IMG/VR virus record: IMGVR_UViG_3300032213_003144
Coordinates: 32,001 to 96,000 of that record
Strand: one strand, 5' to 3'
From: a virus
DNA length: 64,000 nucleotides
A program made the position numbers and the translations under genes. Shown here in pieces: positions 30,676 through 51,754 of this stretch; the first letter of the stretch is position 1; every line of letters begins with the position of its first letter. Under the pieces are notes generated by a model. That model was not told the DNA's origin. It was given only the letters and a program-made list of their open reading frames with translations, and did not search any database.

Positions 30676-31401
30676 ATGGTTGCACTAAAAGACGTTGGAG
30701 GTAAGGAACCAGGCGCACCAATAAATGTGACCGCCACAAATGGTGCTACTGGAAACGCTATTGTTTCTTTCACTCCAAATGGAACCGGAAAAGGAACCCC
30801 CACATTTCAGGTTCTTTCAAGTGCTGGACACACAGCATCCGGCGCATCTAGCCCCATCACCGTTACCGGCCTAACTGGCGGAACAAGCTATACGTATCAG
30901 GTTAGGTGTGTTTCTAACGGCATCACCGGTCCGTATTCATTGCCGTCGGGAAGTGTTACTTCTGGTTTGGCACCAGGCGCGCCAACTGGTGTTACTGCAA
31001 CGGCAGGCAACGCATTGGCAACAGTTGCATACACTGCTGGTGCCGCTGGAACAACTGCTTCAACATTTACAGCCACCTCAACACCGGGCAGCTTTACTGG
31101 GGTTGGCGCATCTCCGATAACGGTCAGCGGTTTGGCAAACGGAACCCCTTACACATTTACGGTTACCGCATCAAACAGTTTTGGCTCAGCAATATCGGCT
31201 GCATCAAACTCCGTAACTCCAGTAGCGCCCCCATACTTTCCTCCTTACTTCCCACCCTTTTTCCCACCGTTCTTCCCTCCGTTCTTTCCTCCATTCTTTC
31301 CACCGTTCTTCCCTCCATTCTTTCCGCCATTTTTCCCTCCATTCTTCCCTCCATTCTTCCCTCCTTTCTTCCCGCCAGGTTTTGGTCCAGGTTTCAAATA
31401 G
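30676..31401 (+). CDS. Two-FN3-domain protein with a C-terminal (PPxF)n repeat tail
   Basis: PGAP-x-x-VTAT...SPITV-x-GL-x-x-GT-x-YT(Y/F)-x-V occurs twice; ends PPYF x2, PPFF x10, PPGF, GPGFK. Confidence 0.9.
   Translation: MVALKDVGGKEPGAPINVTATNGATGNAIVSFTPNGTGKGTPTFQVLSSAGHTASGASSPITVTGLTGGTSYTYQVRCVSNGITGPYSLPSGSVTSGLAPGAPTGVTATAGNALATVAYTAGAAGTTASTFTATSTPGSFTGVGASPITVSGLANGTPYTFTVTASNSFGSAISAASNSVTPVAPPYFPPYFPPFFPPFFPPFFPPFFPPFFPPFFPPFFPPFFPPFFPPFFPPGFGPGFK
31228..31395 (+). repeat. 12-bp-unit tandem repeat encoding PPYF x2, PPFF x10, PPGF, GPGF
   Basis: Read codon by codon; all four Pro codons and both Phe codons are used. Confidence 0.97.
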
Positions 31402-31415
31402 AAACAAAATAAAAA

Positions 31416-32039
31416 ATGAATTACCGAGAACTGGTTTTTGATTTAGAAAGCCTGCCGTCTGCCGACCCATCAAATATAGTCATCAAAGAAAATTTTATAA
31501 GCATAGAACACCTTGCAGAAATAATGGATTACTGTAAATCTGCAGAGTACTGGGAGTCAAGAAGTCCACTAGGTTCTGACAGTATTCATATGCCAGAATT
31601 CATTCGAAAGAATTCTCCAAAAGTGTTCTCAATCATGCAGCAATACGTGGATAACGTTCAGTATGAAGTTGAATATAAATTTGGTAGGAAACTTGAAAAA
31701 ACACAACCAGGAATACGAAAATGGTATCCAGGCGAGTATCAGGATTTGCATGCTGATGGAGAGACTTCTAGTGGGTGGCCTGGATATAACTACATCGTAG
31801 ATTACGGGTCAATAATTTATTTGAACGAAGAGTACGAAGGCGGAGAGCTATTTTTCCCAAAATATGACCTATGTATTAAACCAAATCCAGGAACTCTGGT
31901 TTTCTTCCCATCAACAAACATGTATGCTCACGGCGTTACGGAAATTATGGATGGGGTAAGGTACACATCCCCACATTTTTGGACACCAGTAAAGCACAGG
32001 CTATTAATGGAAATGGCTGTAATGGATGAGCAAAAATAA
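31416..32039 (+). CDS. 2OG-Fe(II) oxygenase, prolyl-4-hydroxylase-like
   Basis: HAD...YLNEEYEGGELFF...FFPS...HGV...G-x-RY. Confidence 0.92.
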   Translation: MNYRELVFDLESLPSADPSNIVIKENFISIEHLAEIMDYCKSAEYWESRSPLGSDSIHMPEFIRKNSPKVFSIMQQYVDNVQYEVEYKFGRKLEKTQPGIRKWYPGEYQDLHADGETSSGWPGYNYIVDYGSIIYLNEEYEGGELFFPKYDLCIKPNPGTLVFFPSTNMYAHGVTEIMDGVRYTSPHFWTPVKHRLLMEMAVMDEQK

Positions 32040-32781
32040 ACATTTATATTTTTTGCATATACCAAAGACGTCTGGAACAAAGATGCAGCACGACATACTC
32101 GCTGCATCAAAAAGTATAAATAAAGCAAAAGTTTACATACCAGGTGACTTCGAGTTTGTATTTAATCCAGAAATAGCCAATTCGTACAATATAATTTGCG
32201 GGCACTTCGCTCGCAATCCGATAGATGTTATCAATGGACTTACGACCTTCTCGATGATAAGGGAGCCATTTGACCAGTATTTAAGTTTGGCTAAATACGC
32301 AGCCGCACAATCCGGTGTTAAGTTTAGTGAAGAATTTTTAGATTTATTCCTTAGTAATGACAATGAATTCAACACACAGTTCGAAGGTATGTCTGGATGC
32401 GACAACCCTCAGTCTTGTTTTTTATTTTCAAAAATTGCATGTATTGAACATCAATCACCCGTAGATTCGTATGGTAATTTACCTGAATCAAAATATCAAT
32501 CATTTTTTGTGGAAAAGCCAACGTCTTATTCTGAGTTAAGCGAAAGATTGGACGGAATAATGATAGGGACTACAGAAAACAGGGCCCTCCTCGTTGAGAG
32601 AGTAAACAATATTCTATTTAATTTATATGGGATTAAAATGGCGCATAGTAATTCGGTAATCAATTCCACGCCGAAGCCGACATTCAAAATAAGCAAAAAA
32701 CACAAATCGAAGATACTCGAAAAAACCGAAATAGACATCGAGTTGTACACAAAAATAAAAGAACTAGAAAATGAACTTTAG
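32026..32781 (+). CDS. Sulfotransferase-like protein
   Basis: FLHIPKTSGT (5'-PSB loop), GHF, REPFDQYLS (3'-PB), D-x-ELY. Confidence 0.8.
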   Translation: MSKNKHLYFLHIPKTSGTKMQHDILAASKSINKAKVYIPGDFEFVFNPEIANSYNIICGHFARNPIDVINGLTTFSMIREPFDQYLSLAKYAAAQSGVKFSEEFLDLFLSNDNEFNTQFEGMSGCDNPQSCFLFSKIACIEHQSPVDSYGNLPESKYQSFFVEKPTSYSELSERLDGIMIGTTENRALLVERVNNILFNLYGIKMAHSNSVINSTPKPTFKISKKHKSKILEKTEIDIELYTKIKELENEL

Positions 32782-33511
32782 AAAACTATATCACCTGCAC
32801 ATACCAAGGACATCTGGGTTTGGAATTGCTAATGCATTAGAGAAAACATTTTCCAAGCAGGGTTTTGGTCTCCACAAACCAACACAAGATGTAATTTTTT
32901 CCGAAGAGTCATATACTCACTTTCCATACGTATCTGGTCATTTTGCAAAAAATCCGATTGCAAATAATGCAGACGCTTTTGAAGTTTTTTCAATAGTCAG
33001 AGACCCAGTGGAACACTACGTGAGCATTGCCGCACATGTCTCCGAAAGCACCGATTTTGAAATGTCAAACGAATTCATGGACGATTTCATGTATGGAAAT
33101 GTAACCCCTTTTGGGGCCAACGAACTATTCTCAAATTCGGGGAATATACAGTCAAAAATGCTATTTTGCAGGATTGCTTTTGTGGATAAGTCTTTTGTTT
33201 CGCTCAGAGATAGTGATGTTGTAAACGAGAAAAATATGGTTTTTATAGAAAATGACATGCCAAACGAAAATGAAATAAAAGACTTAATTGGTTCCATGAA
33301 TCTATTCGCCCTACCAGATAGGGGGATGGCGATTGATTGGCTCAAAGCAAACGTGCTTAAGTCGCATGGTTTTTCTTTAGATAAATCAATTTATTACATA
33401 ACGAATTGCTCGAAAAAAAACGGGTTTAAACCAGACATAACCCACATAAAGGAAATAAAACGGCGCTCAGAAATAGACGAATACCTATATAGGTTAGTAA
33501 AAGAACGATAA
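32771..33511 (+). CDS. Sulfotransferase-like protein (paralog)
   Basis: HLHIPRTSG, SGHF, RDPVEHYVS, DEYLY. Confidence 0.75.
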   Translation: MNFRKLYHLHIPRTSGFGIANALEKTFSKQGFGLHKPTQDVIFSEESYTHFPYVSGHFAKNPIANNADAFEVFSIVRDPVEHYVSIAAHVSESTDFEMSNEFMDDFMYGNVTPFGANELFSNSGNIQSKMLFCRIAFVDKSFVSLRDSDVVNEKNMVFIENDMPNENEIKDLIGSMNLFALPDRGMAIDWLKANVLKSHGFSLDKSIYYITNCSKKNGFKPDITHIKEIKRRSEIDEYLYRLVKER

Positions 33512-33529
33512 TTTGATAGTGTTGCAAGT

Positions 33530-34156
33530 ATGTCGCCAACCGAAAAATCACCATGGAATATACAGCCAGGACACTTTGGGGATGGTCCAGAGAACATACA
33601 CGTCTTTGAAAATTTTATAGATGAAGAAGATTTAAGGGTTGTTCAAGATTTCTGCCCAACAATAAACGAGTGGAATAACTCAAAAGAGAGCGTTTACGCC
33701 GAAGATGGAACATGCCTTTATAACGCTGATTACTGGAATGACAGGCAATGCAGCAGTGATATTCTACAAAGACTCTCCATGCCGGTTTTTAAAATAATTG
33801 ATAAATATATTACAAAGATGCAGTTAGAGCTTGAGAGAATCTACGACCTACGGTTATCTCCACGCCCACCGGTCATCATGAAGTGGAGGCCAGGAATTGA
33901 ACAGCGGCCTCACGCCGACAAGCAACTCAATAATGGTGAACCAAATGCATTCGTTGACTACGATTTGAATTCTTTGTTTTACTACAACGACGATTTTGAA
34001 GGCGGAGAACTTTATTACCCGCAACACGACTTGACCATAAAACCGAAACCCGGATTGGCTATTGCTCACCCAGGAGACGTTAATTATTTACATGGAGTCA
34101 CCTTGGTTACCAAGGGGTATAGGTACACAACACCATCGTTTTACACTGTGCTGTAA
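33530..34156 (+). CDS. 2OG-Fe(II) oxygenase, prolyl-4-hydroxylase-like
   Basis: HAD...YYNDDFEGGELYY...HGV...G-x-RY. Confidence 0.92.
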   Translation: MSPTEKSPWNIQPGHFGDGPENIHVFENFIDEEDLRVVQDFCPTINEWNNSKESVYAEDGTCLYNADYWNDRQCSSDILQRLSMPVFKIIDKYITKMQLELERIYDLRLSPRPPVIMKWRPGIEQRPHADKQLNNGEPNAFVDYDLNSLFYYNDDFEGGELYYPQHDLTIKPKPGLAIAHPGDVNYLHGVTLVTKGYRYTTPSFYTVL

Positions 34157-34159
34157 GCA

Positions 34160-34687
34160 ATGATTTTAATTCAAAAGAATTTTATAAAACCAAAAGAATC
34201 TGACCTAATCCTTGATTCGATTAAGGAGATAGGTTTGCCGCCCAACCTTGCAGAAGATGACCACTCAACCGGCTATTACAGCAAATCCGCCTTACTAGAG
34301 TCCGACGTCTTCGCATACGGAATATTCAATGAGGTATGCGAGCGAGTTTTGGGTTTAGCAGAAAAAGTATTTGATTTAAGCCTAGAACTAGACCAAGCCA
34401 CCCTCATTAAGGTCATTCCTGGAAATATAAGCGAAGAACACGCGGATAGTCAAAACCTTGACGGAACCCCCAAAACGGGCTGTAGTAATTTTCGTATTTC
34501 GGCAGTTGCGTACCTAAATGATGATTTCACTGGTGGGGACCTAGTTTTCCCGACAATGGAACACAGATACAAACCAGTCCCAGGGGATTGTGTAATATTC
34601 CCAAGTCATTTACAATATAGCCACTATGTGGATAGCGTCTTTAGCGGGGAACGAATAAGTTTGGCAATGTGGTTCTCCGGAGTATGA
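34160..34687 (+). CDS. 2OG-Fe(II) oxygenase, prolyl-4-hydroxylase-like
   Basis: HAD...YLNDDFTGGDL...FPS...H-x-V...GERIS. Confidence 0.92.
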   Translation: MILIQKNFIKPKESDLILDSIKEIGLPPNLAEDDHSTGYYSKSALLESDVFAYGIFNEVCERVLGLAEKVFDLSLELDQATLIKVIPGNISEEHADSQNLDGTPKTGCSNFRISAVAYLNDDFTGGDLVFPTMEHRYKPVPGDCVIFPSHLQYSHYVDSVFSGERISLAMWFSGV

Positions 34688-34694
34688 TGAGACA

Positions 34695-35426
34695 ATGAGA
34701 AACATTGATGTCGAGTACATAGGTGACCCCAAAGCTGGGTTTTTGGTTTATAGAAACATACTTACCGAAGACCTTAGAATTCCAGAACGCCTAGAAGCAA
34801 CAATAGGCGACAGCACCACTCCTCCTTATTCGTGGATGCAGGCCCTTGTCGGTGATGGTCAAGTAATGAAGGATTACAGGGATTGCGTTGACTGCAAGAT
34901 GAGCCCGGCACATTTTCAAAACTGTCCAGAGCAATACTCAGAACTCATCAACATATACAACGACACTGTCGTTGGATTGACTGCTTGCTTGCAAGATTAC
35001 GAATCCAGGTACAACATACGTATGGACTTCATGGAAGCAATCAACTACGTCCGATACAACGAGGGTCAGCACTTCAATGTTCACGCCGACCACGGTTTTT
35101 CATACGTCTGCACCGTGTCTTCGGTCATGTATCTTAACGATGATTACGACGGCGGCGAGCTTTGGTTTCCGTACTTAGATGTTACGTTTAAGCCTAAATA
35201 CGGAGACATAGTTTTATTTCCGTCAACATTCATCTATTCTCATGCATCCAAACCTGTCACCAGGGGAACCAAGTATGCAGCTGTAACCATGTTTGACTAC
35301 AACGACAGGTTCCATAAACAGTGGAAGGGCTACGGCAAGAACATAGACGGAACCGACGCTGAATACGGACCCGGAATCGTTAGCCCAACGGCAAACCAAG
35401 TCGAAAGATTTGTATTCAAAAAATGA
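34695..35426 (+). CDS. 2OG-Fe(II) oxygenase, prolyl-4-hydroxylase-like
   Basis: HADHGFSY...YLNDDYDGGEL...FPS...HAS-x-PV-x-x-GTKY (Lys as 2OG ligand, as in P4Hs). Confidence 0.92.
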   Translation: MRNIDVEYIGDPKAGFLVYRNILTEDLRIPERLEATIGDSTTPPYSWMQALVGDGQVMKDYRDCVDCKMSPAHFQNCPEQYSELINIYNDTVVGLTACLQDYESRYNIRMDFMEAINYVRYNEGQHFNVHADHGFSYVCTVSSVMYLNDDYDGGELWFPYLDVTFKPKYGDIVLFPSTFIYSHASKPVTRGTKYAAVTMFDYNDRFHKQWKGYGKNIDGTDAEYGPGIVSPTANQVERFVFKK

Positions 35427-36124
35427 CAAAATTATTTCTTAAACAAACACATCAGAGCCCACCACTCATACAACAGTCGAGGATTAAGCGTGACTGGATG
35501 GACGCTACTTATAATAAACACGCCTATCAATGTCTTCCAATGACGGTAGCCAATGTGTATGGATGGGAGTTGATTCTCGAAGAGGACCTAGTTGTTCAAT
35601 GGGATGGCGGGAATACTCCACCGACAATTATCTCTGGGGAGACGACCTCCTCTGGTCGGGTTCAGGCAATATCTTCGATAATCGGAATGATTTCAATAAA
35701 TATGGGCTGGGTAATAAATACAGAAGAGGGATACAACACCTGGATTTCTGGTTCGCCGAATTACTTCTTGGACGGAGCGGTTCCATTAACTGCAACAATT
35801 CCTAGTCATTGGTGGCCAGACGAATCCCAGATGAATTGGAAGATAACCAAAATTGGAGAGCCGGTAACATTTGCGGCGGGAACCCCATTTTGTTTTTTTA
35901 ATATCTACGACAACTCGATACTCGAGAATGTTGAGATTGTTCGGTCAAGTCTTTGGAGCGACCCTGAGCTCGTTGCGTCTCGCATGAAATACGGGGAAAT
36001 GAAGGCAAAAAATAATGTTGAAAAGCCGTGGACGTGGACAAAAGGTATTCGTACAGGTCTTGACGCGGACGGTAAACAAATAGGGCCTACATTCACTGGT
36101 CTGCCAAAACTAGCCAATCCATAG
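35423..36124 (+). CDS. DUF6065-like protein
   Basis: RDWMD...HAY-x-CLPM-x-x-AN-x-x-GW...G-x-PN...W...MNWKIT. Confidence 0.75.
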   Translation: MTKLFLKQTHQSPPLIQQSRIKRDWMDATYNKHAYQCLPMTVANVYGWELILEEDLVVQWDGGNTPPTIISGETTSSGRVQAISSIIGMISINMGWVINTEEGYNTWISGSPNYFLDGAVPLTATIPSHWWPDESQMNWKITKIGEPVTFAAGTPFCFFNIYDNSILENVEIVRSSLWSDPELVASRMKYGEMKAKNNVEKPWTWTKGIRTGLDADGKQIGPTFTGLPKLANP

Positions 36125-38036: not shown

Positions 38037-39167
38037 CTACCTACAGGTATATCTTTCAAAGTCCATACCCTTGCGACGCATTACGTACTGCCAGAGATTA
38101 AATTTTCTAGACATAAATGCGCCCATGCATGACAAAAGGTAGAACTCCCACATTTTTCTAAATCGCTCGTCATAATTTGGGAGGTTTTCCCAATTTGATG
38201 TTACGTTTTTGTACCATTCCGCCAGAGTTTTTGAATAGTCCATGCCAAAGTTGTGCACATCTTCAATCACCCAATTTGGTTCTGCTGCTGCGGTGAATTG
38301 CGAAACCGATGGAAGGATTCCGCCAGGGAATATATATCTGTCATAGAACGGGTCAGCATCATGTCGTGCTCGAGTTGAGCCAATAAGGTGATGAACCATT
38401 ATTCCCTTGGGTTCTAATTGCTCATCACACTTATCAAAAAATAGTTTTAGATTTTTGGGCCCGACATGTTCCATCATTCCAATTGAAACAATCCGGTCAA
38501 ATTTGCCGAACTGTCCATCAAGGTCCTGGTATGTGAGTTGATGAATTTCAATCCCAAGGGGCTCGCATCTCTTGGTCGCGGTAGATATTTGCTTATCCAC
38601 AGGGGTAATCCCAACTCCAGTGATACCATACTTTTTTGCCGCATATTCAAGGAACCCACCCCAGCCGCACCCAATGTCCAAAACCCTCATCCCCGGCTTT
38701 AATTTTAGTTTTTTACAAATAAGGTCCATCTTCGCAATTTGTGCATCTTCCAAATTGTCTGCTTTTTGCCAATAGCCACACGAATACATCATGTAGTCAT
38801 CAAGCATCAGCTCAAAAAGGTCATTGCCAATCCCATAATGGAACTCCGCATTTTTTGGTGAACGACTTCTGTTCTGACGGTTAGCAATTCTTGACCATGC
38901 AGCCGCAATCGCAATACTTGGGCTCATCGGTATTTGTTTGGCCAAATCAATATTGGTAAAACGCGTAAGCATTTCGTCAACCTTTTCACACGACCACCAA
39001 CCATCCACGTAACCCTCTGCTAACCCAAGTAGTCTCTGGTCCATAAGCCTGTCCCATATACGTTCATCGTGGACTTGTATTGAGTACGGCTCGGGTCCGT
39101 TGATTGGGATTCCGGCCTGTGCGAATAGTTTTGTAAAGAGTTTGGATGATTTTTTTGACATATCCAA
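38037..39167 (-). CDS. cfa: Cyclopropane-fatty-acyl-phospholipid synthase
   Basis: HYGIGNDLF..MLD..M-x-YSCGYW, LEDAQ-x-AKMDLICKKL, VLDIGCGWGG, FDRIVSIGMMEHVG, YIFPGG, RF-x-x-MWEFYL. Confidence 0.95.
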   Translation of the reverse strand: MDMSKKSSKLFTKLFAQAGIPINGPEPYSIQVHDERIWDRLMDQRLLGLAEGYVDGWWSCEKVDEMLTRFTNIDLAKQIPMSPSIAIAAAWSRIANRQNRSRSPKNAEFHYGIGNDLFELMLDDYMMYSCGYWQKADNLEDAQIAKMDLICKKLKLKPGMRVLDIGCGWGGFLEYAAKKYGITGVGITPVDKQISTATKRCEPLGIEIHQLTYQDLDGQFGKFDRIVSIGMMEHVGPKNLKLFFDKCDEQLEPKGIMVHHLIGSTRARHDADPFYDRYIFPGGILPSVSQFTAAAEPNWVIEDVHNFGMDYSKTLAEWYKNVTSNWENLPNYDERFRKMWEFYLLSCMGAFMSRKFNLWQYVMRRKGMDFERYTCR

Positions 39168-39213
39168 ATCCTAGCATGGTAGCAAAGCGCAAAAATATTA
39201 AAAACAACCCCTG

Positions 39214-39231
39214 TGCTATGATTTTTGTATG
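39214..39231 (+). promoter_or_regulatory. Extended -10 leaderless promoter, divergent from a TGcTACCAT element in front of cfa
   Basis: TGcTATGAT-ttttgt-ATG. Confidence 0.6.
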
Positions 39232-39369
39232 TTTGGTCGCATTTTTAATAAAAAATCATGCCTGTTTAGGGACATCACTAAGAAGGATATCCTCATTATC
39301 GCCTTCGGCGCTCCTATCATCGCATTACTGTGCGGACTCGTTAATGAATTAGTGTCCAGACTGATTTGA
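39229..39369 (+). CDS. Small membrane protein (46 aa)
   Basis: Read by hand: MFGRIFNKKSCLFRDITKKDILIIAFGAPIIALLCGLVNELVSRLI; TGcTATGAT-N6-ATG upstream. Confidence 0.55.
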   Translation: MFGRIFNKKSCLFRDITKKDILIIAFGAPIIALLCGLVNELVSRLI

Positions 39370-39379
39370 GGACGGCAGA

Positions 39380-40090
39380 ATGAACGCTAATCTTCAGCCA
39401 AAATTCTGGGAAAACATCATCAAGGATGTTCCATCTATCGTTTCTGCAGTAAGTAACTGGCAGGAGATACTTGCCGAATTTGAAAAGCAGATAGAGGACA
39501 CAAAAGCTCTTTGGTTATGGAGCGTGCCGCGTGTGACGATATCAAGAGATGACCTCAAATCACCAAATAACCCTGATGACATAAAGCTTTACAGTGGTGA
39601 AAAATGGAGAATAATGCCGGCTGGGGTGGCTCCCGAATCTGCAGAATTTCTCGGTCTTGGAGAAGAACTGGGTCGCAGGGTGGTGAAGATGAAGACAAAG
39701 ATGCCATATGAAGAGGGACTGAAGAAACTTCAAGAAACACTTCCGTTCACATCGTCCTTATTTGCAGATTACTCAAAACGTGGAGAATTAAACAACGCAG
39801 TGCTGAGCGTTTTGTCTCCGGGGACAATAATAAACCCACACCGCGGCGACCCGACAATCATGAGAATTCATATTGGCCTCAAGTGTGACCCGAATTGTTC
39901 AATCATGGTTGGCAATGATGATGTTGGTTATGAGTCGAGAACCTGGGAACCGGGCGGGGTAGTGGCGTTTAGAGACGGTGGAGATTTCTGCCATTCTGTT
40001 ATTCACAAGGGCAAAGAAGATAGATGGATATTAATGTTTGACATACCAATCGACTACTTAAAGACAGTAGTCGATAATGAGTATTTATGA
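39380..40090 (+). CDS. Aspartyl/asparaginyl beta-hydroxylase-family 2OG-Fe(II) oxygenase
   Basis: SVLSPGT-x-I-x-PHRG...RIHIGL...RTWEPG...F-x-D...HSV-x-H-x-G-x-x-DR-x-ILMFD. Confidence 0.88.
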   Translation: MNANLQPKFWENIIKDVPSIVSAVSNWQEILAEFEKQIEDTKALWLWSVPRVTISRDDLKSPNNPDDIKLYSGEKWRIMPAGVAPESAEFLGLGEELGRRVVKMKTKMPYEEGLKKLQETLPFTSSLFADYSKRGELNNAVLSVLSPGTIINPHRGDPTIMRIHIGLKCDPNCSIMVGNDDVGYESRTWEPGGVVAFRDGGDFCHSVIHKGKEDRWILMFDIPIDYLKTVVDNEYL

Positions 40091-40944
40091 TTCCCGAAAG
40101 TGAAGCGGCGGAATACGCCAAACAAATATCATCAACCCAATCAGTTTCAATATTGATTTATTCGTTTGCCAGCATTTGTTTGTACATTCTAAATATTGCT
40201 GCGTACCAGAACGATTTATATGGTCTTCTGATAGCTTTGCCTATTAGCGCTATAGTTTCATACTATATTTTTTCCACTGTTCACGAAGCAGTACACAATT
40301 CCGTAGTCCCATCAAATAGAAAAATAAATGACTTAATTGGACGGGTTTTTGCTTTTGTTTTAAATATGGATTTTGCATCATTTAGAAAAATACATCAACA
40401 GCACCATATTCATGCGAATTCTAAGCGCGACCCAGATTCCATATTTGGAGAACAGGGTAAGCGCTCCTATGTCATTACTATGCCAACATTTTTGGTTTTA
40501 TTGCGAATATTCGTTGTGCTCCCAAGAAATATACGAATGAAATTTATTAAGAATTTAAGCGGCAGGACAAAAGTGTTTATTTACTTATACCAAAAAGACA
40601 ATAGTCAATGTCGAGTATATGTAATAAATTTCTACTTGGCACTTATTTCGCTAACCATATTTGGGTTTGATTCCGTGATGATGTTTTGCTATATGTCTTC
40701 AATGCTGGCAATGTTCATTATCTATCCAATGGTAACCTGGTTGCCGCATTTGTCTATTTTTGATAGAGAAGAACACGCTGTCGATAAATATAAAACGACC
40801 AAAATACAAGGGGGCCGACTTAGTCCACTTACCCTATTCCCAATACCTCATCATTTGACCCACCATCTTTACCCCAGTGTTCCTGTTTCAAGACTGAAAA
40901 AGATGTCAAAATTTATACAACCGATGTTGGGTAGTGCCAAGTAA
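40087..40944 (+). CDS. Membrane fatty-acid desaturase/hydroxylase family protein
   Basis: Three His boxes HEAVH, HQQHH, HLTHH-x-x-P-x-VP plus TM helices. Confidence 0.88.
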   Translation: MIPESEAAEYAKQISSTQSVSILIYSFASICLYILNIAAYQNDLYGLLIALPISAIVSYYIFSTVHEAVHNSVVPSNRKINDLIGRVFAFVLNMDFASFRKIHQQHHIHANSKRDPDSIFGEQGKRSYVITMPTFLVLLRIFVVLPRNIRMKFIKNLSGRTKVFIYLYQKDNSQCRVYVINFYLALISLTIFGFDSVMMFCYMSSMLAMFIIYPMVTWLPHLSIFDREEHAVDKYKTTKIQGGRLSPLTLFPIPHHLTHHLYPSVPVSRLKKMSKFIQPMLGSAK

Positions 40945-42406: not shown

Positions 42407-43267
42407 ATGGCTGCAGATATAAAAAATCTCGGTGGCGGTGTTGTCGTTTTTGAAGACGCAATTAGTGTCCCAATTGCGGAGATAGTAGAGGTCATTGACA
42501 GACTTTCTGATGATGCAATAAAAGAGCAGTACGAGTATGTATATGACACCAATGGCGAACCAATTCATGCAATAAACAAAAGTGGGTTTATCTACCAACT
42601 TGACTCAATAGCAAAAAGTCCAACAAGAATTCAAAACCTTACCGACCCATTCTTTTGGCAATGCGAAAACGCAATATACAAATGTCTTCTCCAGTACATC
42701 GAATTATTTCCCGCCGTTCTTCAGTGTCTATGGTGGAAAAGTGAAGGGCATGTCCTGAAGTACCCAACTGGCTCCAGTCTCGGATTCCACTGTGACAATG
42801 ACGTGAATTATCGATATGGACAACTCCCGCCTTTTGAGCATGCCACAAGGAATGTGATAAGTGCTCTTGTGTACATAAACAACAATTGCGATGACTCAGA
42901 TTGCGACCAGTTTTCCTTTACTGGCGGAGAAATGATTATTCCGTATTTCGACATAACTATAAAGCCAAAAAGCGGAACAGTAATTTTCATGCCAGCGAAT
43001 TATCTCGGTGCGCATGAAATTATGGAGATAACTTCTGGTTCCAGATACTCCTATCTTTCGTGGTTCGCCCAGGGCTCTCCACAGCAGGAGAAAGGTGTTT
43101 CTCCACAATACCTAGAAAGCTCAGACGATAGGCCCATCGGCGGTCAGTGGTGGATGCCAACACTTATTGCGGACTATGACAAACACCTTATGGACAAGTA
43201 TGGCGATGAGGGTAGAATACCCCCAGGAGCAACTCCATTCAAGTCAAGAAAGAACGACCATAAATGA
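42407..43267 (+). CDS. 2OG-Fe(II) oxygenase (LGGGVVVF subfamily)
   Basis: HCDND...GG...P-x-NY-x-x-AHE...G-x-RYSYL-x-W. Confidence 0.9.
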   Translation: MAADIKNLGGGVVVFEDAISVPIAEIVEVIDRLSDDAIKEQYEYVYDTNGEPIHAINKSGFIYQLDSIAKSPTRIQNLTDPFFWQCENAIYKCLLQYIELFPAVLQCLWWKSEGHVLKYPTGSSLGFHCDNDVNYRYGQLPPFEHATRNVISALVYINNNCDDSDCDQFSFTGGEMIIPYFDITIKPKSGTVIFMPANYLGAHEIMEITSGSRYSYLSWFAQGSPQQEKGVSPQYLESSDDRPIGGQWWMPTLIADYDKHLMDKYGDEGRIPPGATPFKSRKNDHK

Positions 43268-44154
43268 TTTTCAACGATTCAAAAGCCGAACATCTTGGTG
43301 GTGGTGTTGTTGTATTTCGCAATGCTGTATCTGTTAATTGGGAGTTTGCTAATAATATTTCAAAAGAAATAGTTGATAGAGAAGTTGTAGAAATGTATTC
43401 TCCGGCAATAAATCCAGATAGCGGCAAAGAAGAATACGTAAACAGAAGTGGATACTTCTTTTCTAAAACCGGAATCGACAAAATGCCCAAAAGGGGCTCA
43501 AGGGTTCATCAGGACACCAGGGGCGAGGTTGTCGAGTTGTTTACATTTTTAGAAGACTCAAAAGATAGGTACTTGTTCAAATACATGCACATGTTTCCAT
43601 TATCATATAAAAATATTTGGTGGAAAGTTAAAGGGCATTTAGTTAACTATTCGTCTGAATGTGGTGGATACATCGGTGAACACAGTGACACCAGCGTTGA
43701 CTATGTTTACGGCATTCCTCACCCACCCCATCAGTTGGCGTCAAGAAATACGCTCTCTTGCATTGTGTATTTTGGCAGCTGCGTTGATGGACACATTCCT
43801 TCTGGGCCTGGTGATTTTACTGGTGGACATCATAAATTTACATATCTTGATATTGAGTACATCCCAAACCGAGGGGACATACTGATGTTCCCGTCAAACT
43901 ATGTAGCAGCACACGAGGTAACACCAGTTAGGTCAGGAAATAGATTCACCTATCTCGGATGGTATGCACACGGAACTCCAAACCCAAACGTCAATGAAGA
44001 AGTCGAGGACCCAGGAGTCAATCCAGAAAAAGCCGCAATATCATCAAATGTTTATATCCCATATTTAAGAGATAAATTCTTGGATTATCTAGACTCTGTT
44101 GGTGAAGATAAATCTTCAAAAACATATAGACTTGCCCTCGGGGAAGGCATATGA
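43264..44154 (+). CDS. 2OG-Fe(II) oxygenase (LGGGVVVF subfamily)
   Basis: HSD...FTGG...FPSNYVAAHEV...G-x-RFTYL-x-W. Confidence 0.9.
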   Translation: MIFNDSKAEHLGGGVVVFRNAVSVNWEFANNISKEIVDREVVEMYSPAINPDSGKEEYVNRSGYFFSKTGIDKMPKRGSRVHQDTRGEVVELFTFLEDSKDRYLFKYMHMFPLSYKNIWWKVKGHLVNYSSECGGYIGEHSDTSVDYVYGIPHPPHQLASRNTLSCIVYFGSCVDGHIPSGPGDFTGGHHKFTYLDIEYIPNRGDILMFPSNYVAAHEVTPVRSGNRFTYLGWYAHGTPNPNVNEEVEDPGVNPEKAAISSNVYIPYLRDKFLDYLDSVGEDKSSKTYRLALGEGI

Positions 44155-44879
44155 AATTAACACACCTCGGAAGCGGAATAGTATTAGTACGAAATTTAGT
44201 CGAAATTTCGCACGATGACACCAATGAAATAAGTGGAATATTCAACTCAACGGCACCACAAGGTTTTTCGATTGTTAATGGGAAAATAATAAGTGATGGT
44301 GGATATGAGTTTGACGAGATTGGTAGGAGCAAGTCTCCGACCAGATATACAGACATAGGAGAATTCGCTATAACAAAGAAGTTGAGGGAGTCAATGTATT
44401 CAGCAATCGTTGAATACTGTAAAGTATTCCCAGTTGCTCTTGAGTGTATAACTGGGCAGACTGATGGCTACATGATTAGATATGGTCACGGAAGTGATAT
44501 GGGTCCACACTCGGATTGCAATCTTCCGTACAAACCTGGAACCCTTGAGCCGATGACAAGTAGTCCTGCATTCAATACTCTTACAACCTCTATATTTCTT
44601 AACGACGGGTACGCCGGGGGGGAGGTGACTTTCAGGATGTGGGGAATCACGGTTAAGCCAGAAGCTGGAACTGCAATTATCTATCCATCAAATTTCATTG
44701 GCTGCCACGAGGTTGCGGAAGTCAGCGATGGAGAAAGGTGGGCTTTTCTTAGTTGGTTTTTCCACGGAAACGGACAGGAGAGCAAAGATGGTTCCTATGA
44801 GTGGTCCCAGCAACTAAAGCAAAAAGTTGGACTTGGAAATATTTTTCAGAAAAACATTCTAATAGGGGATATTAGCTGA
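44151..44879 (+). CDS. 2OG-Fe(II) oxygenase (LGSGIV subfamily)
   Basis: HSD...FLND-x-Y-x-GGE...PSNFIGCHEV...GERW. Confidence 0.9.
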   Translation: MKLTHLGSGIVLVRNLVEISHDDTNEISGIFNSTAPQGFSIVNGKIISDGGYEFDEIGRSKSPTRYTDIGEFAITKKLRESMYSAIVEYCKVFPVALECITGQTDGYMIRYGHGSDMGPHSDCNLPYKPGTLEPMTSSPAFNTLTTSIFLNDGYAGGEVTFRMWGITVKPEAGTAIIYPSNFIGCHEVAEVSDGERWAFLSWFFHGNGQESKDGSYEWSQQLKQKVGLGNIFQKNILIGDIS

Positions 44880-45417
44880 ACAATCTTTTAAAGGTTGTTC
44901 GATTGAGTGCCTTCGCCGAATCAGCACAAATGTGAACCTTCCATATCCCATCAGAAAATAGGGATTCTACAAGTTTTATTGATTCTTGCTTGCCCGACAA
45001 ATATAAGTCACGCTTATCCTCACCGCCCCCTTGGTCGTACCCGGTAGGAAATCCTCGAAACAGTGCTTCAACAAAATCTATATTTGCGGAACCTGCCATT
45101 TCTCTTACTTCTTGTTCCGACTCTTCACCGTGAAGATTGTTTCCGTCGACATATATGCCCTTGAAACCATGTTTTGCTGTTGCGGTAATTGTTTCAATCC
45201 CAATATTTAATCTTCCTATACAAAATAGAATGTCTGAAGCATCCAGCAGCTCAGGAAGTGAGTCATGTCGTACTGCGCCGGTAAGTGTTTTAGCGTTATC
45301 CAGTGTCTGTTGAGAACGACCAATAGGAGTCCAGTGGACTTCGTTTCCGGAATTAGTGACACTCTTTGAGATTGTTAGGCCCATTTTCCCCATAGACACA
45401 ATTCCAACCTTAAGCAC
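44872..45417 (-). CDS. NAD(P)-binding protein (6PGD/3-hydroxyisobutyrate dehydrogenase N-terminal-like), lacking the C-terminal domain
   Basis: KVGIVSMGKMG, GRS-x-x-T, YVD-x-N, LYLSG, ASA-like end. Confidence 0.7.
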   Translation of the reverse strand: MLKVGIVSMGKMGLTISKSVTNSGNEVHWTPIGRSQQTLDNAKTLTGAVRHDSLPELLDASDILFCIGRLNIGIETITATAKHGFKGIYVDGNNLHGEESEQEVREMAGSANIDFVEALFRGFPTGYDQGGGEDKRDLYLSGKQESIKLVESLFSDGIWKVHICADSAKALNRTTFKRLFS

Positions 45418-45419
45418 GA

Positions 45420-46409
45420 CTATTGGGCTTTCTGGTTTGCCGGATTTATGTATCCTTGTTCGCCCTCTAGGTTTCTGACGAGGTAATCAACATTGTTGGA
45501 ATTCTCGTCCAGGTGAGAAAAGTTTGTCCTCAGATGGGAGCAATAAGCTTGATAGTCATCAAACACTGAATCAATCCAATGTGGAGCACACCAGTTTGAA
45601 ACCTCTCCTGGCTCAACAACTTCTATTCTGACATTTGCATCAGGGCTACCCTGAGAAAAAAACTCCAAATACGAATAACGAGTTCCGCCAGTAACCGTAT
45701 TTACGCCATGTGAGGCAACATAATTTGTGGGGAAGATTATTATGTCTCCCCGTTTGGCTTGATGAGATATACCCAGGTATGGGAAAAATAATTCACCGCC
45801 TGAATAGTTTGTTCCATCTAGCTCTTCCACCGAACCAACGCAATCGTTAATATAAAGAAGTACTGCAACCGTCTGTCTTGCGCCAAGCTGACCATAGGGG
45901 ATGTATCGCTGACCGCCAGTGGCCCTGTAGTTCGTATCATTATCGTTGTGAAGGCCGAGATACTTCCCGGTGTCGTAACGGAGAATGTGTCCTCGGTTTC
46001 TCCACCAGATTGTTCCTGCGACAAGGGGGAACATGTCGATATATCTAATTAGGGATTTATAAATAGAATCTTCCCAGTTTCTTACAATGTCCACAACCTC
46101 TTGCTCTGTGTTGTCTTGAATTGGTTGAAGCACTCTTACCGGTACGGCCTCCACCTGTTCCAGGGAGAACTTGTTCCCGTCCTCATTTTTTAAGTACACC
46201 ACTCCGTTTATGTCTGTGTCGTACTTCCATCTCTGCTGATGCGCAGCAAGGGCATTTTTATCAATCCATTTGGACATAAACTCCAAGTTGGTTTCCATGA
46301 CATTGTGAAAAACAACCACCCCACCACCAAGGTTGGTAAAGTCCAATTTCCTGATTTCCTCCAGAACCTCTGGCGTCATTTCTGGTGTATCAACCTCATA
46401 CCTCTTCAA
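45420..46409 (-). CDS. 2OG-Fe(II) oxygenase (LGGGVVVF subfamily)
   Basis: WWRNRGHILRY...HNDND...GGEL...FPTNYVASHGV...GTRY. Confidence 0.9.
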   Translation of the reverse strand: MKRYEVDTPEMTPEVLEEIRKLDFTNLGGGVVVFHNVMETNLEFMSKWIDKNALAAHQQRWKYDTDINGVVYLKNEDGNKFSLEQVEAVPVRVLQPIQDNTEQEVVDIVRNWEDSIYKSLIRYIDMFPLVAGTIWWRNRGHILRYDTGKYLGLHNDNDTNYRATGGQRYIPYGQLGARQTVAVLLYINDCVGSVEELDGTNYSGGELFFPYLGISHQAKRGDIIIFPTNYVASHGVNTVTGGTRYSYLEFFSQGSPDANVRIEVVEPGEVSNWCAPHWIDSVFDDYQAYCSHLRTNFSHLDENSNNVDYLVRNLEGEQGYINPANQKAQ

Positions 46410-47394
46410 TTGCGTTCACCCTTTCTGCGATGTGCGTTTCTCCATACTGAGTGACGCATCTATTTTGAAAAACAGGATTTGCTCCCAGCTCAAGGTCGGG
46501 GGTTGGGTGTGACCATATTGAGAATTCAGATTTGCAATAACGCTCATAGTCATCGTAGATACTGTCGAACCAAACAGGTTCGCACCATTGGATACTTTCG
46601 ACAGACTCCTTAATTCGGATATTTGCAGATTCATCAGTTCCGCCTTGACCAAAGAAAGTTAGATACGCATACCTAGTGCCACCCTCCATCTTGGTTACTC
46701 CATGAGCACATATATAATTGGTTGGAAACATGATGATGTCTCCCTTTTGCGGCTTATAATCAATCCCAAGATACGTGAACTTTAAGTGACCCCCGACGAA
46801 TGTCTCTTCAGTTAGGTCGTCTTTGGAGTCAACGCAATTATTGAAGTAGGCAAGTGCTCCGGCTGTTTGACGAAGTGCGACCTGGCCCCTAGGCATGTAT
46901 CGAACACCTTCGGTCACTTTGTAGTTGGTGTCATTGTCCTGATGCCAGCCAAGTATGCCTCCACCGTCATACCTGAGTATGTGTCCGCGTGTTCTCCACC
47001 ATAGGCTTCCGACGATAAGTGGGAACATGTCAATATATTTTATTAAACATTTATAAATGACGTTCTCGAGCTCTGTGAAGTATTGGGTGGCATATTCATC
47101 TGTCGACTCGATAACGGGCTCTAGCAGCCTCACAGGAGCGTTTGGGACGTCCTCCAGGCGATACCTGAAGCCATCTTCGTTGATGCCGTACTCAACTCCA
47201 TCCTCGCCAGTTATGTATGTCCATCTAACCTTATGTGCTTCGGCTGCACAGTCGTCAATATGCTCAAGGATTCTATCTTCTACCTTGAATACATTCTTGA
47301 AAACGACTATTCCGCTTCCGAGGTCCTCAAAGGCAAATTCTGATATTTCCTTAAGTTCGTTTTCCCCAATGATTGGGGTGCCGGGCATTATCAC
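46396..47394 (-). CDS. 2OG-Fe(II) oxygenase (LGSGIVVF subfamily)
   Basis: WWRTRGHILRY...HQDND...FPTNYICAHGV...GTRY. Confidence 0.9.
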   Translation of the reverse strand: MIMPGTPIIGENELKEISEFAFEDLGSGIVVFKNVFKVEDRILEHIDDCAAEAHKVRWTYITGEDGVEYGINEDGFRYRLEDVPNAPVRLLEPVIESTDEYATQYFTELENVIYKCLIKYIDMFPLIVGSLWWRTRGHILRYDGGGILGWHQDNDTNYKVTEGVRYMPRGQVALRQTAGALAYFNNCVDSKDDLTEETFVGGHLKFTYLGIDYKPQKGDIIMFPTNYICAHGVTKMEGGTRYAYLTFFGQGGTDESANIRIKESVESIQWCEPVWFDSIYDDYERYCKSEFSIWSHPTPDLELGANPVFQNRCVTQYGETHIAERVNAIEEV

Positions 47395-47396
47395 GG

Positions 47397-48020
47397 CTAA
47401 CCGACAAGAAACTTGACTGCATCAATCACGGTCCAAGACTGTCCTGCCGCAACCGGTTTTTCTGCAAGCGGTCTATCGGCCCAATTGAATCTTCCAACCT
47501 GTTGACCGTCTCGGCTTATGAGGAATTTTTCATTGTTATGTGGGATTCTCATTATTGCCTGTCCGGCGAGATTCTGTCCAGCGGCAGCACCTTCGGAGCC
47601 GTCGGCCTTGTTGTCGTCGAAAGAACGAACAGTATCCCCCTTCATGAAGCTCCAGGTTTTATGTTCGTCCGGACCGTTGACATCAATTTTTTCTGTTATA
47701 GGGAAGGTGACGAATGGGTATGCTTCTGAAACAAATTTTGCTATTTCCTCATTACCCATCGGGTCCATTTCGCTGAATTGATTACACGGAAAAGCTACAA
47801 CGCTGAAACCTTTGTCTTCAAACATTTCGTGAAGCATTTGCAATTCCCATAGTTGTCTTGCCGCTCTTGCGTAAGACCAAACAGGACTACACTTAGGCGT
47901 ATACCCAGCCTTGGTCGCAATGTTTGTAAATAGGCATACTTTCCCCCTCACTGAGTCAAGTAAATTTGGGGACCCGTCTATAGAGTTAATTGAAATATCA
48001 AAAATTGAACGATTGGTCAT
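47397..48020 (-). CDS. Glutathione-peroxidase-like protein with Ala at the canonical peroxidatic Cys position
   Basis: NIATKAGYT, VVAFPCNQF, TFPITEKIDVNG, EKFLISRDG. Confidence 0.85.
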   Translation of the reverse strand: MTNRSIFDISINSIDGSPNLLDSVRGKVCLFTNIATKAGYTPKCSPVWSYARAARQLWELQMLHEMFEDKGFSVVAFPCNQFSEMDPMGNEEIAKFVSEAYPFVTFPITEKIDVNGPDEHKTWSFMKGDTVRSFDDNKADGSEGAAAGQNLAGQAIMRIPHNNEKFLISRDGQQVGRFNWADRPLAEKPVAAGQSWTVIDAVKFLVG

Positions 48021-49188: not shown

Positions 49189-49650
49189 TTACGTTTTAAC
49201 CCAAAAGAAGGAAGACGCATACCTATCTCCTGCGGTGATTTCTTTTACACCATGAAAAACCGGATTGCGCCAAAAAATAAGCGAACCCTCTTTCGGCTTA
49301 ATCTCTATCTTGTCATCAGGGAAGTATATTTCACCACCATCAAAACTATCAACCCAGTACAGTGTTGACGAAAAATCTGGTCTTTCTTCTCTCTTTGTGA
49401 AATCAATATGGACATCCTGTTTTTCCCCAATTGTGGAAATGTTGTAGTCCAACCCTGGATAGTCATATTCTTGGACTGTGATTGAAAATTCTGCTTCTAT
49501 TAAAGATTTTACCCTGTCCCTTATCGACTCGTAGTTGATTGTTGGTGGCAGGGACGGGAACCCATCTTTTGGGGTATTGGATATATGTTGAGCAAAAATC
49601 TCTAATTCAGAAGCTGTTAGTAAATCTTCAATATAATGAATTCTGCTCAT
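49189..49650 (-). CDS. 2OG-Fe(II) oxygenase, prolyl-4-hydroxylase-like (compact)
   Basis: HID...FDGGEIYF...IKPKEGSL...HGVKEITAGDRY. Confidence 0.9.
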   Translation of the reverse strand: MSRIHYIEDLLTASELEIFAQHISNTPKDGFPSLPPTINYESIRDRVKSLIEAEFSITVQEYDYPGLDYNISTIGEKQDVHIDFTKREERPDFSSTLYWVDSFDGGEIYFPDDKIEIKPKEGSLIFWRNPVFHGVKEITAGDRYASSFFWVKT

Positions 49651-49668: not shown

Positions 49669-50610
49669 TTAATCCAATGCATCCATTGCTTCGTAGAACT
49701 CCACTGGGTTGAAGCCGGCAAAATCTAGGTACTCTTTCAATTTTTCTGCATTTGGTGCTCCGCTATCGCCAAATAATTCACCCATATATATGCTTCGTTG
49801 GCGAGCTAAATCTTTTTGAAAACGTACTGAATAGCGGTTCATGTTTGAATGACCAATGTTGCCATGCCAATCATTTTCATAAAAAACCTCACCCTTGTTC
49901 ATGTGCCATAAAAATGGCTTTCCAATCGAGAACATTCTGTAACCACGAGTGTATGAGCGAAGTGCTACGAGGTGCTCATCACCAATAAATACAAACTTCC
50001 AGTCATGCCCAACCTCCTCCAACCATGATGATGAAGCAAACAAGACGTGGCCAGCAATCGTGTTGTGCTCAACCACATCTTCTCCGCACACAACTGAATC
50101 CCAAGACCTTTTTGGCTCTATCCAATTTTTTTCTGGAAAACCAAAAATGTAAGAACATACGTTGCAACAATTCTGTGAATCCGGTTTGTAGTGGAGTATT
50201 TCCCCATTTTCCCCTACTGACCACCATGGCACGAATGTTGAGATAATCGGTTTTTCGAACCCAGATTCAATTATTTTTTTATGTGCAGATATCAGACCGG
50301 AATCCCAATTTTTTTCAAAAAGCATGTGGGCGTCAATTTGTAAATAGTAATCCTCATTATTCCAAAATGAATCAGCTATCAATCTGTCAACACCAAAACC
50401 AGAAGGTTTACCAATTATTGAATATCTTACTTGAACGTTTTTAAGCATTGACAGGTCTTCGAAGCATCCGTCATTTGACTGATAATTTATTCCAAAAAAC
50501 ACTCGTTCTTGATGTTCGGCCATCTTTTGAGCTGACTCAATTGTTTGTTTTAAATATTGCTCATTATACGCAGGAATTGAAATAAAAATTGTCTTTTGAT
50601 TGTCGGTCAT
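49669..50610 (-). CDS. GT60-like glycosyltransferase ([Skp1]-hydroxyproline GlcNAc-transferase family)
   Basis: TIFISIPAY...L-x-x-TI...A-x-x-x-ERVFFGI-x-x-Q and EDYYLQIDAHM-x-F-x-x-NWD, plus F-x-GDE-x-x-x-ALR-x-YT-x-GY...WH. Confidence 0.8.
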   Translation of the reverse strand: MTDNQKTIFISIPAYNEQYLKQTIESAQKMAEHQERVFFGINYQSNDGCFEDLSMLKNVQVRYSIIGKPSGFGVDRLIADSFWNNEDYYLQIDAHMLFEKNWDSGLISAHKKIIESGFEKPIISTFVPWWSVGENGEILHYKPDSQNCCNVCSYIFGFPEKNWIEPKRSWDSVVCGEDVVEHNTIAGHVLFASSSWLEEVGHDWKFVFIGDEHLVALRSYTRGYRMFSIGKPFLWHMNKGEVFYENDWHGNIGHSNMNRYSVRFQKDLARQRSIYMGELFGDSGAPNAEKLKEYLDFAGFNPVEFYEAMDALD

Positions 50611-51272
50611 AAATCAAATTTTTCTATTGAAGAGTTTACAGATGCCCTGTATGTTGTCTTAAAGTACTCATGTCTATTGTAGTCAAACATAGTGACAACG
50701 GAATATTTGATACCATCTTCGACATTTAGGGCAGAGTGCATATACATAAAATTAGAAGGAAACACAATAATATCCCCAGCCTCAGGCTGAATGGTCACGT
50801 CAAGATTTTTGAAGTGCAGAGCACCCCCAGTAAAATCTGAATTTAAATACGCAACTGACGAAACAGATGCGACATAGCTAAAACCATCATCTGAATGATA
50901 ATTAAAGTAGTTATCATCATAATACTTTATGATATTCATAGTTTCCACGAAACCTAGGTCAACATTGAAATTCCTGGCATAATTTAATGCCGTATCGATT
51001 ATTTTGTTCCGCATCGAATTTACAATTCGAATATCATCTATGTCGTATTGTTTGTTTTTTAATGCAACTAGGTCTGGTTTCCAATCAAAACATTTCCTAT
51101 AAGTCGCACTTAATTGATAGTGTCCAACTTGCGCGGGGGACCATAGACACTCTTGGCCGTTTTGCCCACTAGCAATTCTCTCTATTGCGTCAACTACTGC
51201 TGGCGCATCATCTATTGCGTTTGGGAATCTCCAAATTCCAAAGCGTTCTTCACCACAGTATGCGTGGTCCAT
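50607..51272 (-). CDS. 2OG-Fe(II) oxygenase, prolyl-4-hydroxylase-like (paralog of 34695..35426)
   Basis: HSDDGFSY...YLNSDFTGG...FPSNFMYMHSA...G-x-KYSVVTMFDYN. Confidence 0.92.
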   Translation of the reverse strand: MDHAYCGEERFGIWRFPNAIDDAPAVVDAIERIASGQNGQECLWSPAQVGHYQLSATYRKCFDWKPDLVALKNKQYDIDDIRIVNSMRNKIIDTALNYARNFNVDLGFVETMNIIKYYDDNYFNYHSDDGFSYVASVSSVAYLNSDFTGGALHFKNLDVTIQPEAGDIIVFPSNFMYMHSALNVEDGIKYSVVTMFDYNRHEYFKTTYRASVNSSIEKFDL

Positions 51273-51278: not shown

Positions 51279-51506
51279 CTACCACTTGCCAAGCGGGCAT
51301 GCGGCTGCCTCCATCTTCACCTTGAGTTTCATGAAGCATCCACACTCTTTGCATTGTTTTGTTGTTTTGATTAAGCTCGGGCACTCCTCGCATATTTTGA
51401 ACCGATTTGCCGAAACATCTTCCGTCGCTTGAGGTGTGTTTGGGTTTAGTACATCCCACGGACGTGTTGTGCCTAGTTTCTTTTTATATTCTTGCCATGC
51501 ATTCAT
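51279..51506 (-). CDS. Small Cys-rich (DUF6171-like) protein
   Basis: R-x-x-IC-x-x-CP...QC-x-x-CGCFM-x-x-K...CPLGKW. Confidence 0.75.
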   Translation of the reverse strand: MNAWQEYKKKLGTTRPWDVLNPNTPQATEDVSANRFKICEECPSLIKTTKQCKECGCFMKLKVKMEAAACPLGKW

Positions 51507-51523: not shown

Positions 51524-51754
51524 CTATACTGGTGGGTGAAAGCCTGTCTCATCATGAGTGTATCCCTCAATGACCATATCCTTTTGTTCCTCTAAAAGGA
51601 CTATTACCTTTGGGTCAGAAGATAGGGCTGCCACTTCGAGCGGCATATATTCGGTTCTCATTGGAATAATGCAGGCCACTTCGCCATCTACGACAAAAGC
51701 AAAGTAGGTGAAGTCTTCCTTGCGGAAAGTTGTTGGTGCTTCATTGTTTGACAT
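51524..51754 (-). CDS. Small protein, paralog of 23221..23439
   Basis: FAFVVDGEV...LSSDPKVIVL; AAGGAG RBS. Confidence 0.7.
   Translation of the reverse strand: MSNNEAPTTFRKEDFTYFAFVVDGEVACIIPMRTEYMPLEVAALSSDPKVIVLLEEQKDMVIEGYTHDETGFHPPV

Follow-up and report, generated by a model that had tools for sequence, protein, structure and literature searches.

Hydroxyproline (Hyp) and Hyp-linked glycans are regarded as a eukaryotic chemistry, that of collagen, plant cell walls and the protist protein Skp1. The closest described parallel to the locus considered here is the Skp1 pathway, in which a prolyl 4-hydroxylase (P4H)-type 2-oxoglutarate (2OG) oxygenase, PhyA, is paired with Gnt1, a glycosyltransferase (GT) of family GT60; the characterized Gnt1 depends on prior hydroxylation by PhyA (PMC6939170), and Pythium has a P4H/Gnt1 fusion (PMC8724618). 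We analyzed a 64,000-nucleotide stretch of DNA (the window), bases 32001-96000 of the 170,425-bp IMG/VR virus record IMGVR_UViG_3300032213_003144, which is judged complete. On its minus strand the window encodes a P4H-like Fe(II)/2OG oxygenase (P0002, 50607..51272) and, directly downstream, a GT60-like glycosyltransferase (P0001, 49669..50610). We propose, at a probability of roughly 45%, that the two constitute a protein-tailoring cassette, in which P0002 would hydroxylate the PPxF prolines of a neighboring tail-fiber tip protein (P0003) and P0001 would add a sugar to the resulting Hyp, a proposal built on sequence comparisons and structural models.

The pair resembles the Skp1 enzymes in combining a P4H-type 2OG oxygenase with a GT of the PF11397 family, both soluble cytoplasmic enzymes, in having viral and bacterial fusions that parallel the one in Pythium, and in that PhyA (6T8M) is the top-ranked fold for P0002. 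It differs in its candidate substrate, a tandem PPxF repeat as against a single proline in a folded protein, and in the oxygenase itself, whose 2OG site carries a Lys in place of Arg and whose best matches by profile are collagen-type P4Hs. An earlier, sequence-only reading of this locus held that it mirrors the protist Skp1 Hyp-GlcNAc pathway; this holds for the logic of the system (families, fold and fusions) but, in view of the Lys and the collagen-type matches, not as a demonstrated orthology. Bacteria and phages are not known to have Skp1; a search of this phage genome gave no match to PF01466 (Skp1), and it is uninformative as the control also failed to match. The P4H of PBCV-1 (vCPH) offers a second parallel, since here too a virus encodes both a P4H and Pro-rich tandem repeats, and vCPH ranks with the top matches of the phage enzyme by profile as well as by fold; however, PBCV-1 belongs to the giant viruses of eukaryotes, and its P4H has no dedicated Hyp-glycosyltransferase as a partner. 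The PBCV-1 repeats are of the PAPK type. Mimivirus L230 and animal LH3, a source of weak profile matches, likewise join a 2OG hydroxylase to a GT, and their target is a structural protein built of repeats, but the product is hydroxylysine-linked Glc/Gal on Gly-X-Y collagen, whereas the phage repeats have neither Lys nor collagen triplets. Compared with the Skp1, P4H/HPAT, PBCV-1 and L230 systems, the phage pair is set apart by the host domain of tailed phages, by PPx[FY] repeats carried on fn3 fibers and by two constant partners, DUF6065 and DUF6171. In the literature searched we found no report of Hyp or Hyp-linked glycans in phage virions, and no study of the viral proteins named 'Glycosyltransferase, GlcNAc' in UniProt, the automatic annotation given there to uncultured Caudovirales proteins similar to P0001.

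Both reading frames are open at the above coordinates, and the assignment of P0001 (313 aa) to the GT60 kind is solid. The profile search by which the sequence-only reading was to be checked returned PF11397 (GlcNAc), whose model derives from GT60 enzymes, as the sole family above cut-off (E 4.3e-24; 86.1 bits against a cut-off of 21), rather than a generic GT2 with no GT60 match; the GT2 model reached 18.7 bits, under its cut-off of 23.3. All 116 near-length homologs of P0001 likewise carry PF11397. The motifs IFISI-x-AY and YLQID-x-H-x-x-F-x-x-x-WD, which the sequence-only reading had picked out, are present as IFISIPAY at the N-terminus and as YLQIDAHMLFEKNWD, and an alignment of 57 GT homologs shows Q91, D93, H95, W102 and D103 to be invariant, including both ends of the D93-A-H95 metal motif. 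The AlphaFold model (pLDDT 93.1) has a Rossmann-like β/α core, for which Foldseek finds the GT27 polypeptide GalNAc-transferases as the nearest folds (E ~5e-10); a VIA search (all against representatives) similarly places GalNAc-T1 (Z 21.1, 276 aligned residues) and Toxoplasma GalNAc-T3 (Z 19.9) ahead of the next GT-A fold (Z 16.8). P0001 is without an N-terminal anchor, its first β-strand beginning at residue 8, and finishes at the catalytic domain with no lectin domain. GT60 has been described as a lectin-less relative of the GT27 ppGalNAc-transferases (PMC8724618). PDB sequence searches with the GT, as a single sequence and as a profile, gave nothing meaningful, and no solved structure of a GT60 member or relative. 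Given that P0001 scores 86 bits against PF11397 where bacterial members reach 364, it can be placed in a divergent viral clade. It is the only copy of this GT in the 170-kb genome.

P0002 (221 aa, ending in TGA) belongs to a subfamily of PF13640 (2OG-FeII_Oxy_3; E 2.7e-9) that we term oxyA. Its iron triad, H126, D128 and H179, is invariant; at position 189, ten residues beyond the triad, 44 of 60 sequences, P0002 among them, have Lys and the other 16 have Arg. The subfamily profile matches the P4Hs of B. anthracis (1.7e-17) and PBCV-1 (2.9e-12), followed by P3H1, algal P4H and PHD2. A structural model of P0002 (pLDDT 91.7) retrieves by Foldseek, at TM 0.6-0.7, Dictyostelium PhyA (6T8M) first and then Pseudomonas PPHD (4IW3, in complex with EF-Tu), PHD2, algal P4H (3GZE) and vCPH (5C5T); all of the top structural matches are protein prolyl hydroxylases. 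Triad, profile and fold together support the prediction of a prolyl-hydroxylase-type enzyme. They do not fix the residue or the position that is hydroxylated, which may be Pro-3, Phe or others. A second oxyA gene lies in the other arm of the virion genes (34695..35426, plus strand; PF13640 E 5.3e-13), is 33% identical to P0002 and overlaps the gene for a DUF6065 protein by 4 nt. Because the GT-adjacent oxygenases of other lineages are closer to this paralog than to P0002, the latter is a duplicate specific to this lineage and devoted to the arm with the GT.

The two enzyme families are also joined within single polypeptides. P0120 (555 aa) is a PF13640-PF11397 fusion that keeps the domain order of the window pair, with a GT part 46% identical to P0001; the identical sequence was recovered independently from an ENA and a JGI assembly, and an oxyA gene precedes the fusion gene. 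A triple fusion of HPAT, GlcNAc and PF13640 domains is seen in P0122 (1186 aa), encoded in the Pseudomonadota metagenome-assembled genome GCA_039814635.1 (L014:8001-11561, plus strand), making it a candidate all-in-one bacterial Hyp-glycosylation enzyme. The divergent neighbor of its gene is a gene of the O-FucT family. P0122, in joining HPAT, GT60-like and P4H domains, recalls the plant and algal extensins, whose tandem Pro-rich repeats are hydroxylated by P4H and then O-glycosylated by HPAT. Extensins differ in that this chemistry belongs to the secretory pathway and to Ser-Pro(n) motifs, while the phage repeat is PPx[FY]; none of the window proteins scanned against Pfam has an HPAT domain.

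Gene-neighborhood analysis extends this link. A single-protein scan of viral contigs returned nothing, and an alignment-based scan retrieved GT homologs from 188 IMG/VR contigs and from ENA/JGI contigs, which upon clustering at 80% identity give 48 lineages. An oxyA gene lies within 3 kb of the GT in 15 of these lineages and within 10 kb in 19, and any PF13640 oxygenase is found within 10 kb or fused in 32; oxyA is directly beside the GT in the window and in L005, L010, L012, L032 and L034. A DUF6065-like gene is near the GT in 18 of the 48 lineages, adjoining it in L008, L010, L016, L024, L027, L040 and L062, and a small Cys-rich DUF6171-like protein is encoded within 10 kb in 21. In 17 of the 48 lineages a protein with PPx[FY] repeats, defined as at least 4 units in 48 aa of reading frame, is encoded no more than 3.5 kb from the GT; 25 such segments were observed at GT loci against 1.8 expected from composition, in forms that include APPTFT, PPPPSF, APPPVFT, PPFF, PPYF and APPVYY. 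Together these observations make the functional coupling of P4H-like and GT60-like enzymes on Pro-rich fiber repeats a well-supported prediction from sequence and gene context.

Two further features of the GT loci may be mentioned. Distant viral GT60-like genes (~30% identity) occur as tandem or nearby pairs (L055, L057, L058, L060 and L070-L073), and since neither oxyA nor a repeat protein nor DUF6065 is encoded within 10 kb of them (a single weak PF13640-like match in L058 aside), the viral GT60-like family occurs in other contexts too. In two assemblies of an 82%-identical relative (L002:5339-5905 and L004:552-1064) the oxygenase 5' of the GT seems shortened; the translations contain X, and these are probably assembly gaps rather than pseudogenes.

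The genome has two convergent arms of virion and tail-fiber genes, each ending in an fn3 protein with a Pro-rich repeat, and on both arms the oxyA gene, P0002 or its paralog, is at the distal end of the tail-fiber operon. On the minus-strand arm the candidate substrate is P0003 (51776..52795), an fn3 tail-fiber tip protein (fn3 E 4e-14; PHROG minor tail and tail fiber J families) with a Cys-rich C-terminus. The APPTFT repeats that the sequence-only reading had attributed to an upstream tip protein are indeed found in it: P0003 has five PP[TS]F units, including APPTFA, two of APPTFT and APPSF, coded by an 18-nt repeat in 3.4 copies, and in its orthologs the repeat persists, reading APPTF[TNS] in L003 and PPPPSF in L005. 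Between P0003 and 44872 the intergenic distances range from -14 to +64 nt, and a scan for promoters and terminators found no signals above chance; the pair therefore lies within one long operon behind the fiber genes. The stop codon of P0002 and the ATG of P0001 share the 4 nt ATGA (50607..50610, minus strand), an overlap already described in the sequence-only reading and also seen in L003, L005, L006 and L015. On the plus-strand arm the second candidate substrate is the fn3 protein P0273 (30676..31401; fn3 E 1.6e-10), with about 12 terminal PP[FY]F units coded by a 12-nt repeat in 12.2 copies (31231-31377); an oxygenase gene begins 14 nt after it. This arm also encodes the DUF6065 protein (35423..36124, plus strand; PF19541 E 1.2e-44), a constant partner of oxyA, for which an Atlas look-up gave only its own family and whose alignment is without an HxD...H triad.

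A scan with the oxyA alignment found the subfamily in at least 581 uncultivated viral contigs, and the following counts refer to 48 oxyA lineages from the best 80 loci. A PPx[FY]-repeat protein is present in 42 and DUF6065 in 44 of them. The module, with repeats of the form (PP[FY]F)n or PPxFF, is thus found in the window at 30676-36124 (plus strand) and in these IMG/VR contigs (L094-L172), and complete 106-110 kb genomes with terminal repeats have it as well. Searches of cultured phages found none with the module: tblastn with the GT gave only the Xanthomonas jumbo phage Xoo-sp13 at 24% identity, DUF6065 had no match, and in place of a full-length oxyA there were only partial matches to other oxygenases. 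The module is thus common in viromes, where the hydroxylase subfamily occurs on at least 581 contigs and the GT on 188, but absent from cultured phages, and so represents a visible annotation gap.

In light of these connections, we propose that the phage-encoded cassette would act in the cytoplasm of the infected cell, ahead of virion assembly. P0002 would hydroxylate prolines in the PPxF-type repeats (APPTF[TA] units) of P0003, whose gene lies ~500 nt upstream in the same operon. P0001, a soluble metal-dependent GT-A enzyme with the DxH motif, would then move the sugar of a UDP-sugar, probably a HexNAc, onto the new Hyp. The product would be an extensin-like or Skp1-like stretch of Hyp-glycopeptide at the fiber tip, with hydroxylation as the core of the system and glycosylation as an optional addition confined to a minority of lineages, this one among them. 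More tentatively, uncultivated tailed phages might use a dedicated P4H to build Hyp-rich, extensin-like (PPxF)n tails on their fn3 fibers, and lineages such as this one might decorate these further with Hyp-linked sugars by means of a GT60-like enzyme. Bacterial viruses would thereby gain their first Hyp O-glycosylation system, a counterpart in the prokaryotic world, possibly a source or sink, of PhyA/Gnt1. If these proposals are true, the fibers carry a modification so far unreported for bacterial viruses, and this would be a new class of receptor-binding-protein decoration, which could tune host range or keep the very hydrophobic Pro/Phe repeats stable and soluble. They would also give a purpose to at least some of the many 2OG oxygenases that have long been a puzzle in cyanophage-like viruses, and provide a compact two-gene system from a bacterial virus for studying the coupling of P4H to GT60.

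Several observations weigh against this proposal. The 4-nt overlap is weak evidence when taken alone, because an overlap of exactly this length is seen in at least 9 pairs of same-strand genes in the window. Adjacency alone is similarly weak, as the island between the two arms holds ~15 paralogous 2OG oxygenases within 20 kb. With respect to the enzyme, the E-value of 6T8M is near those of many other P4Hs, so that PhyA is not separated from them by fold; given scores this close, the 2OG-site Lys and the collagen-type profile matches described above, orthology to PhyA cannot be claimed. In 16 of the 48 GT lineages no oxygenase gene lies within 10 kb. Conversely, the GT is found within 10 kb in only 1 of the 48 oxyA lineages, in 1 of 14 long records upon a whole-record search, and in 0 of 3 genomes at least 94% complete. 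The conserved core thus consists of the repeat protein, oxyA and DUF6065, with the GT60-like gene as an optional addition. As this core is widespread without the GT, glycosylation is not required for the system, and the case for oxyA acting on the repeats is strengthened. Lastly, the Thr content of the repeats points to a different acceptor: mean Thr is 7.3% in GT lineages and 0.2% in GT-free oxyA lineages (Mann-Whitney p 3e-4), and a Thr share of at least 10% is reached by 4 of 17 GT-linked repeats and by none of 41 from GT-free lineages (Fisher p 0.006).

This Thr signal is the basis of the alternative that survives best, which we nevertheless consider unlikely, namely that Thr or Ser in the repeats is itself the acceptor of the GT, the oxygenase hydroxylating Pro or another residue of the repeats in parallel, with no Hyp-sugar bond. 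Within this genome the arm with the GT has the Thr-bearing APPTFT protein and the arm without it has (PPFF)12, relatives retain Thr or Ser in their repeats, and the GT lineages with no nearby oxygenase would also be accommodated. There is precedent in the family, since GT60 includes the Thr α-GlcNAc-transferases of T. cruzi and Dictyostelium, which share with P0001 the GT-A architecture, the DxH motif, the lack of a lectin domain and a GT27-like catalytic fold (PMC8724618), and the Thr-rich repeats near the viral GT fit such an activity. Those enzymes differ in that they reside in the Golgi as type-II membrane proteins and modify mucin-like Ser/Thr domains, whereas P0001 is unanchored and paired with a hydroxylase. 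The Thr statistics are a lead and not proof, because the lineages are phylogenetically non-independent and the GT and GT-free sets were sampled differently. Moreover, 10 of the 17 GT-linked repeats have no Thr, and several of them (the PPFF/PPYF repeats of L010, L018, L041 and L046) have no Ser either, so that an acceptor could arise there only via hydroxylation (or be Tyr); the oxygenase-GT and HPAT-GT60-P4H fusions likewise point to coupled chemistry. We thus favor Hyp as the acceptor, though this is unproven, because of the fusions (one of them with HPAT), the dependence of Gnt1 on PhyA and the repeats devoid of Ser and Thr.

It is improbable, by our estimate, that the pair instead modifies host proteins, for example a translation factor, or other phage proteins as part of host takeover, with the nearby repeat protein being coincidental. 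Pseudomonas PPHD hydroxylates EF-Tu, and the PPHD-EF-Tu complex is the second-best structural match of P0002; the island also contains lipid-modifying and redox genes, and cyanophage 2OG oxygenases have been proposed to serve host physiology or DNA repair (PMC3037559). This alternative can hardly account for the association of oxyA with the repeats in 42 of 48 lineages and of the GT with them in 17 of 48, against a near-zero chance expectation, nor for the location of the genes at the distal end of the tail-fiber operons on both arms. Still less probable is the absence of any functional coupling, whereby the GT would have landed in a hyperplastic, paralogue-rich island and act on an unrelated acceptor. 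The crowding of oxygenases and the commonness of 4-nt overlaps in the window would suit it, as would the GT being on the strand opposite to its neighbors in L007 and L046 and adjoining an oxygenase of another subfamily in L009; but against it stand the oxygenase-GT fusions from independent samples, and the recurrence beside the GT of one specific subfamily, to which only 2 of the ~15 island oxygenases (P0002 and 34695-35426) belong. Finally, oxygenases and GTs do work as pairs in the DNA modification of phages, but a TET/JBP-like hydroxylation followed by glycosylation of DNA bases, as in phage hypermodified DNA or base J, or of a small molecule or lipid, is very improbable here, as the Tet_JBP match of P0002 (E 0.034, 13.8 bits) is far under the cut-off of 34.9 bits and the top matches are protein prolyl hydroxylases for P0002 and polypeptide GalNAc-transferases for the GT.

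With regard to the wider setting, the virion protein at 27137-29893 is ~45% identical to its counterparts in the T4-like cyanomyoviruses S-RSM4 and S-PM2. A family search of the genome found no psbA; one for Gp23 found no match, its control being likewise uninformative, and an 11-kb megablast query had no match among cultured phages. Clusters of 2OG-Fe(II) oxygenase genes of the same superfamily are known from these related phages (PMC3037559), but the cultured ones have ~0-5 oxygenase copies per genome (PMC3037559) and are without the GT, DUF6065 and full-length oxyA. Their oxygenases have been ascribed to 2OG/N-stress or DNA repair, not to fiber modification (PMC3037559).

All ten PF13640 matches of the present genome (at E 0.01) fall in the island between the arms. 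Five longer PF13640 oxygenases (242-332 aa) at the convergence point of the arms (42407-47394) form a distinct local expansion outside oxyA, and a short one (49189..49650, minus strand; PF13640 E 1.6e-9; phrog_61) is directly 3' of the GT. The island also encodes a PhyH protein, two GSHPx-like proteins, a cyclopropane-fatty-acid (CFA) synthase, a desaturase and an AspH-like hydroxylase. At 38037-40944 the CFA synthase gene (CMAS, E 5e-78) is divergent from those for the AspH-like hydroxylase and the fatty-acid desaturase, an unusual lipid-remodeling set for a phage. Of two glutathione-peroxidase-like genes, one is at 11660-12538 (plus strand), and the other (47397-48020, minus strand) is inside the oxygenase operon and is kept there in L003, L005 and L010; the product of the latter may guard against oxidative by-products of uncoupled 2OG turnover. 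A sugar cluster at 12548-16372 (minus strand), comprising a NAD-dependent epimerase/dehydratase, a methyltransferase, a GT2 and a phage GT (phrog_7162), could build or extend a glycan begun by the GT60-like enzyme.

Two small genes of the operon separate P0003 from P0002. The one next to the oxygenase (51279..51506, minus strand) encodes the DUF6171-like protein (PF19668 E 1.2e-6), with the Cys pattern CxxC...CxxCxC...C; homologs are often directly by the GT (L061, L043, L044, L049 and L053), even without an oxygenase, and in many cases a weak DUF6065-like gene occupies the opposite flank; this protein could be a partner or a substrate of the GT. The other (51524..51754, minus strand; 76 aa) had no family match in PHROG and Pfam scans of the window proteins, and shares an F-A-F-V-(I/V)-D-G-E-V stretch with its counterparts in L003 and L005.

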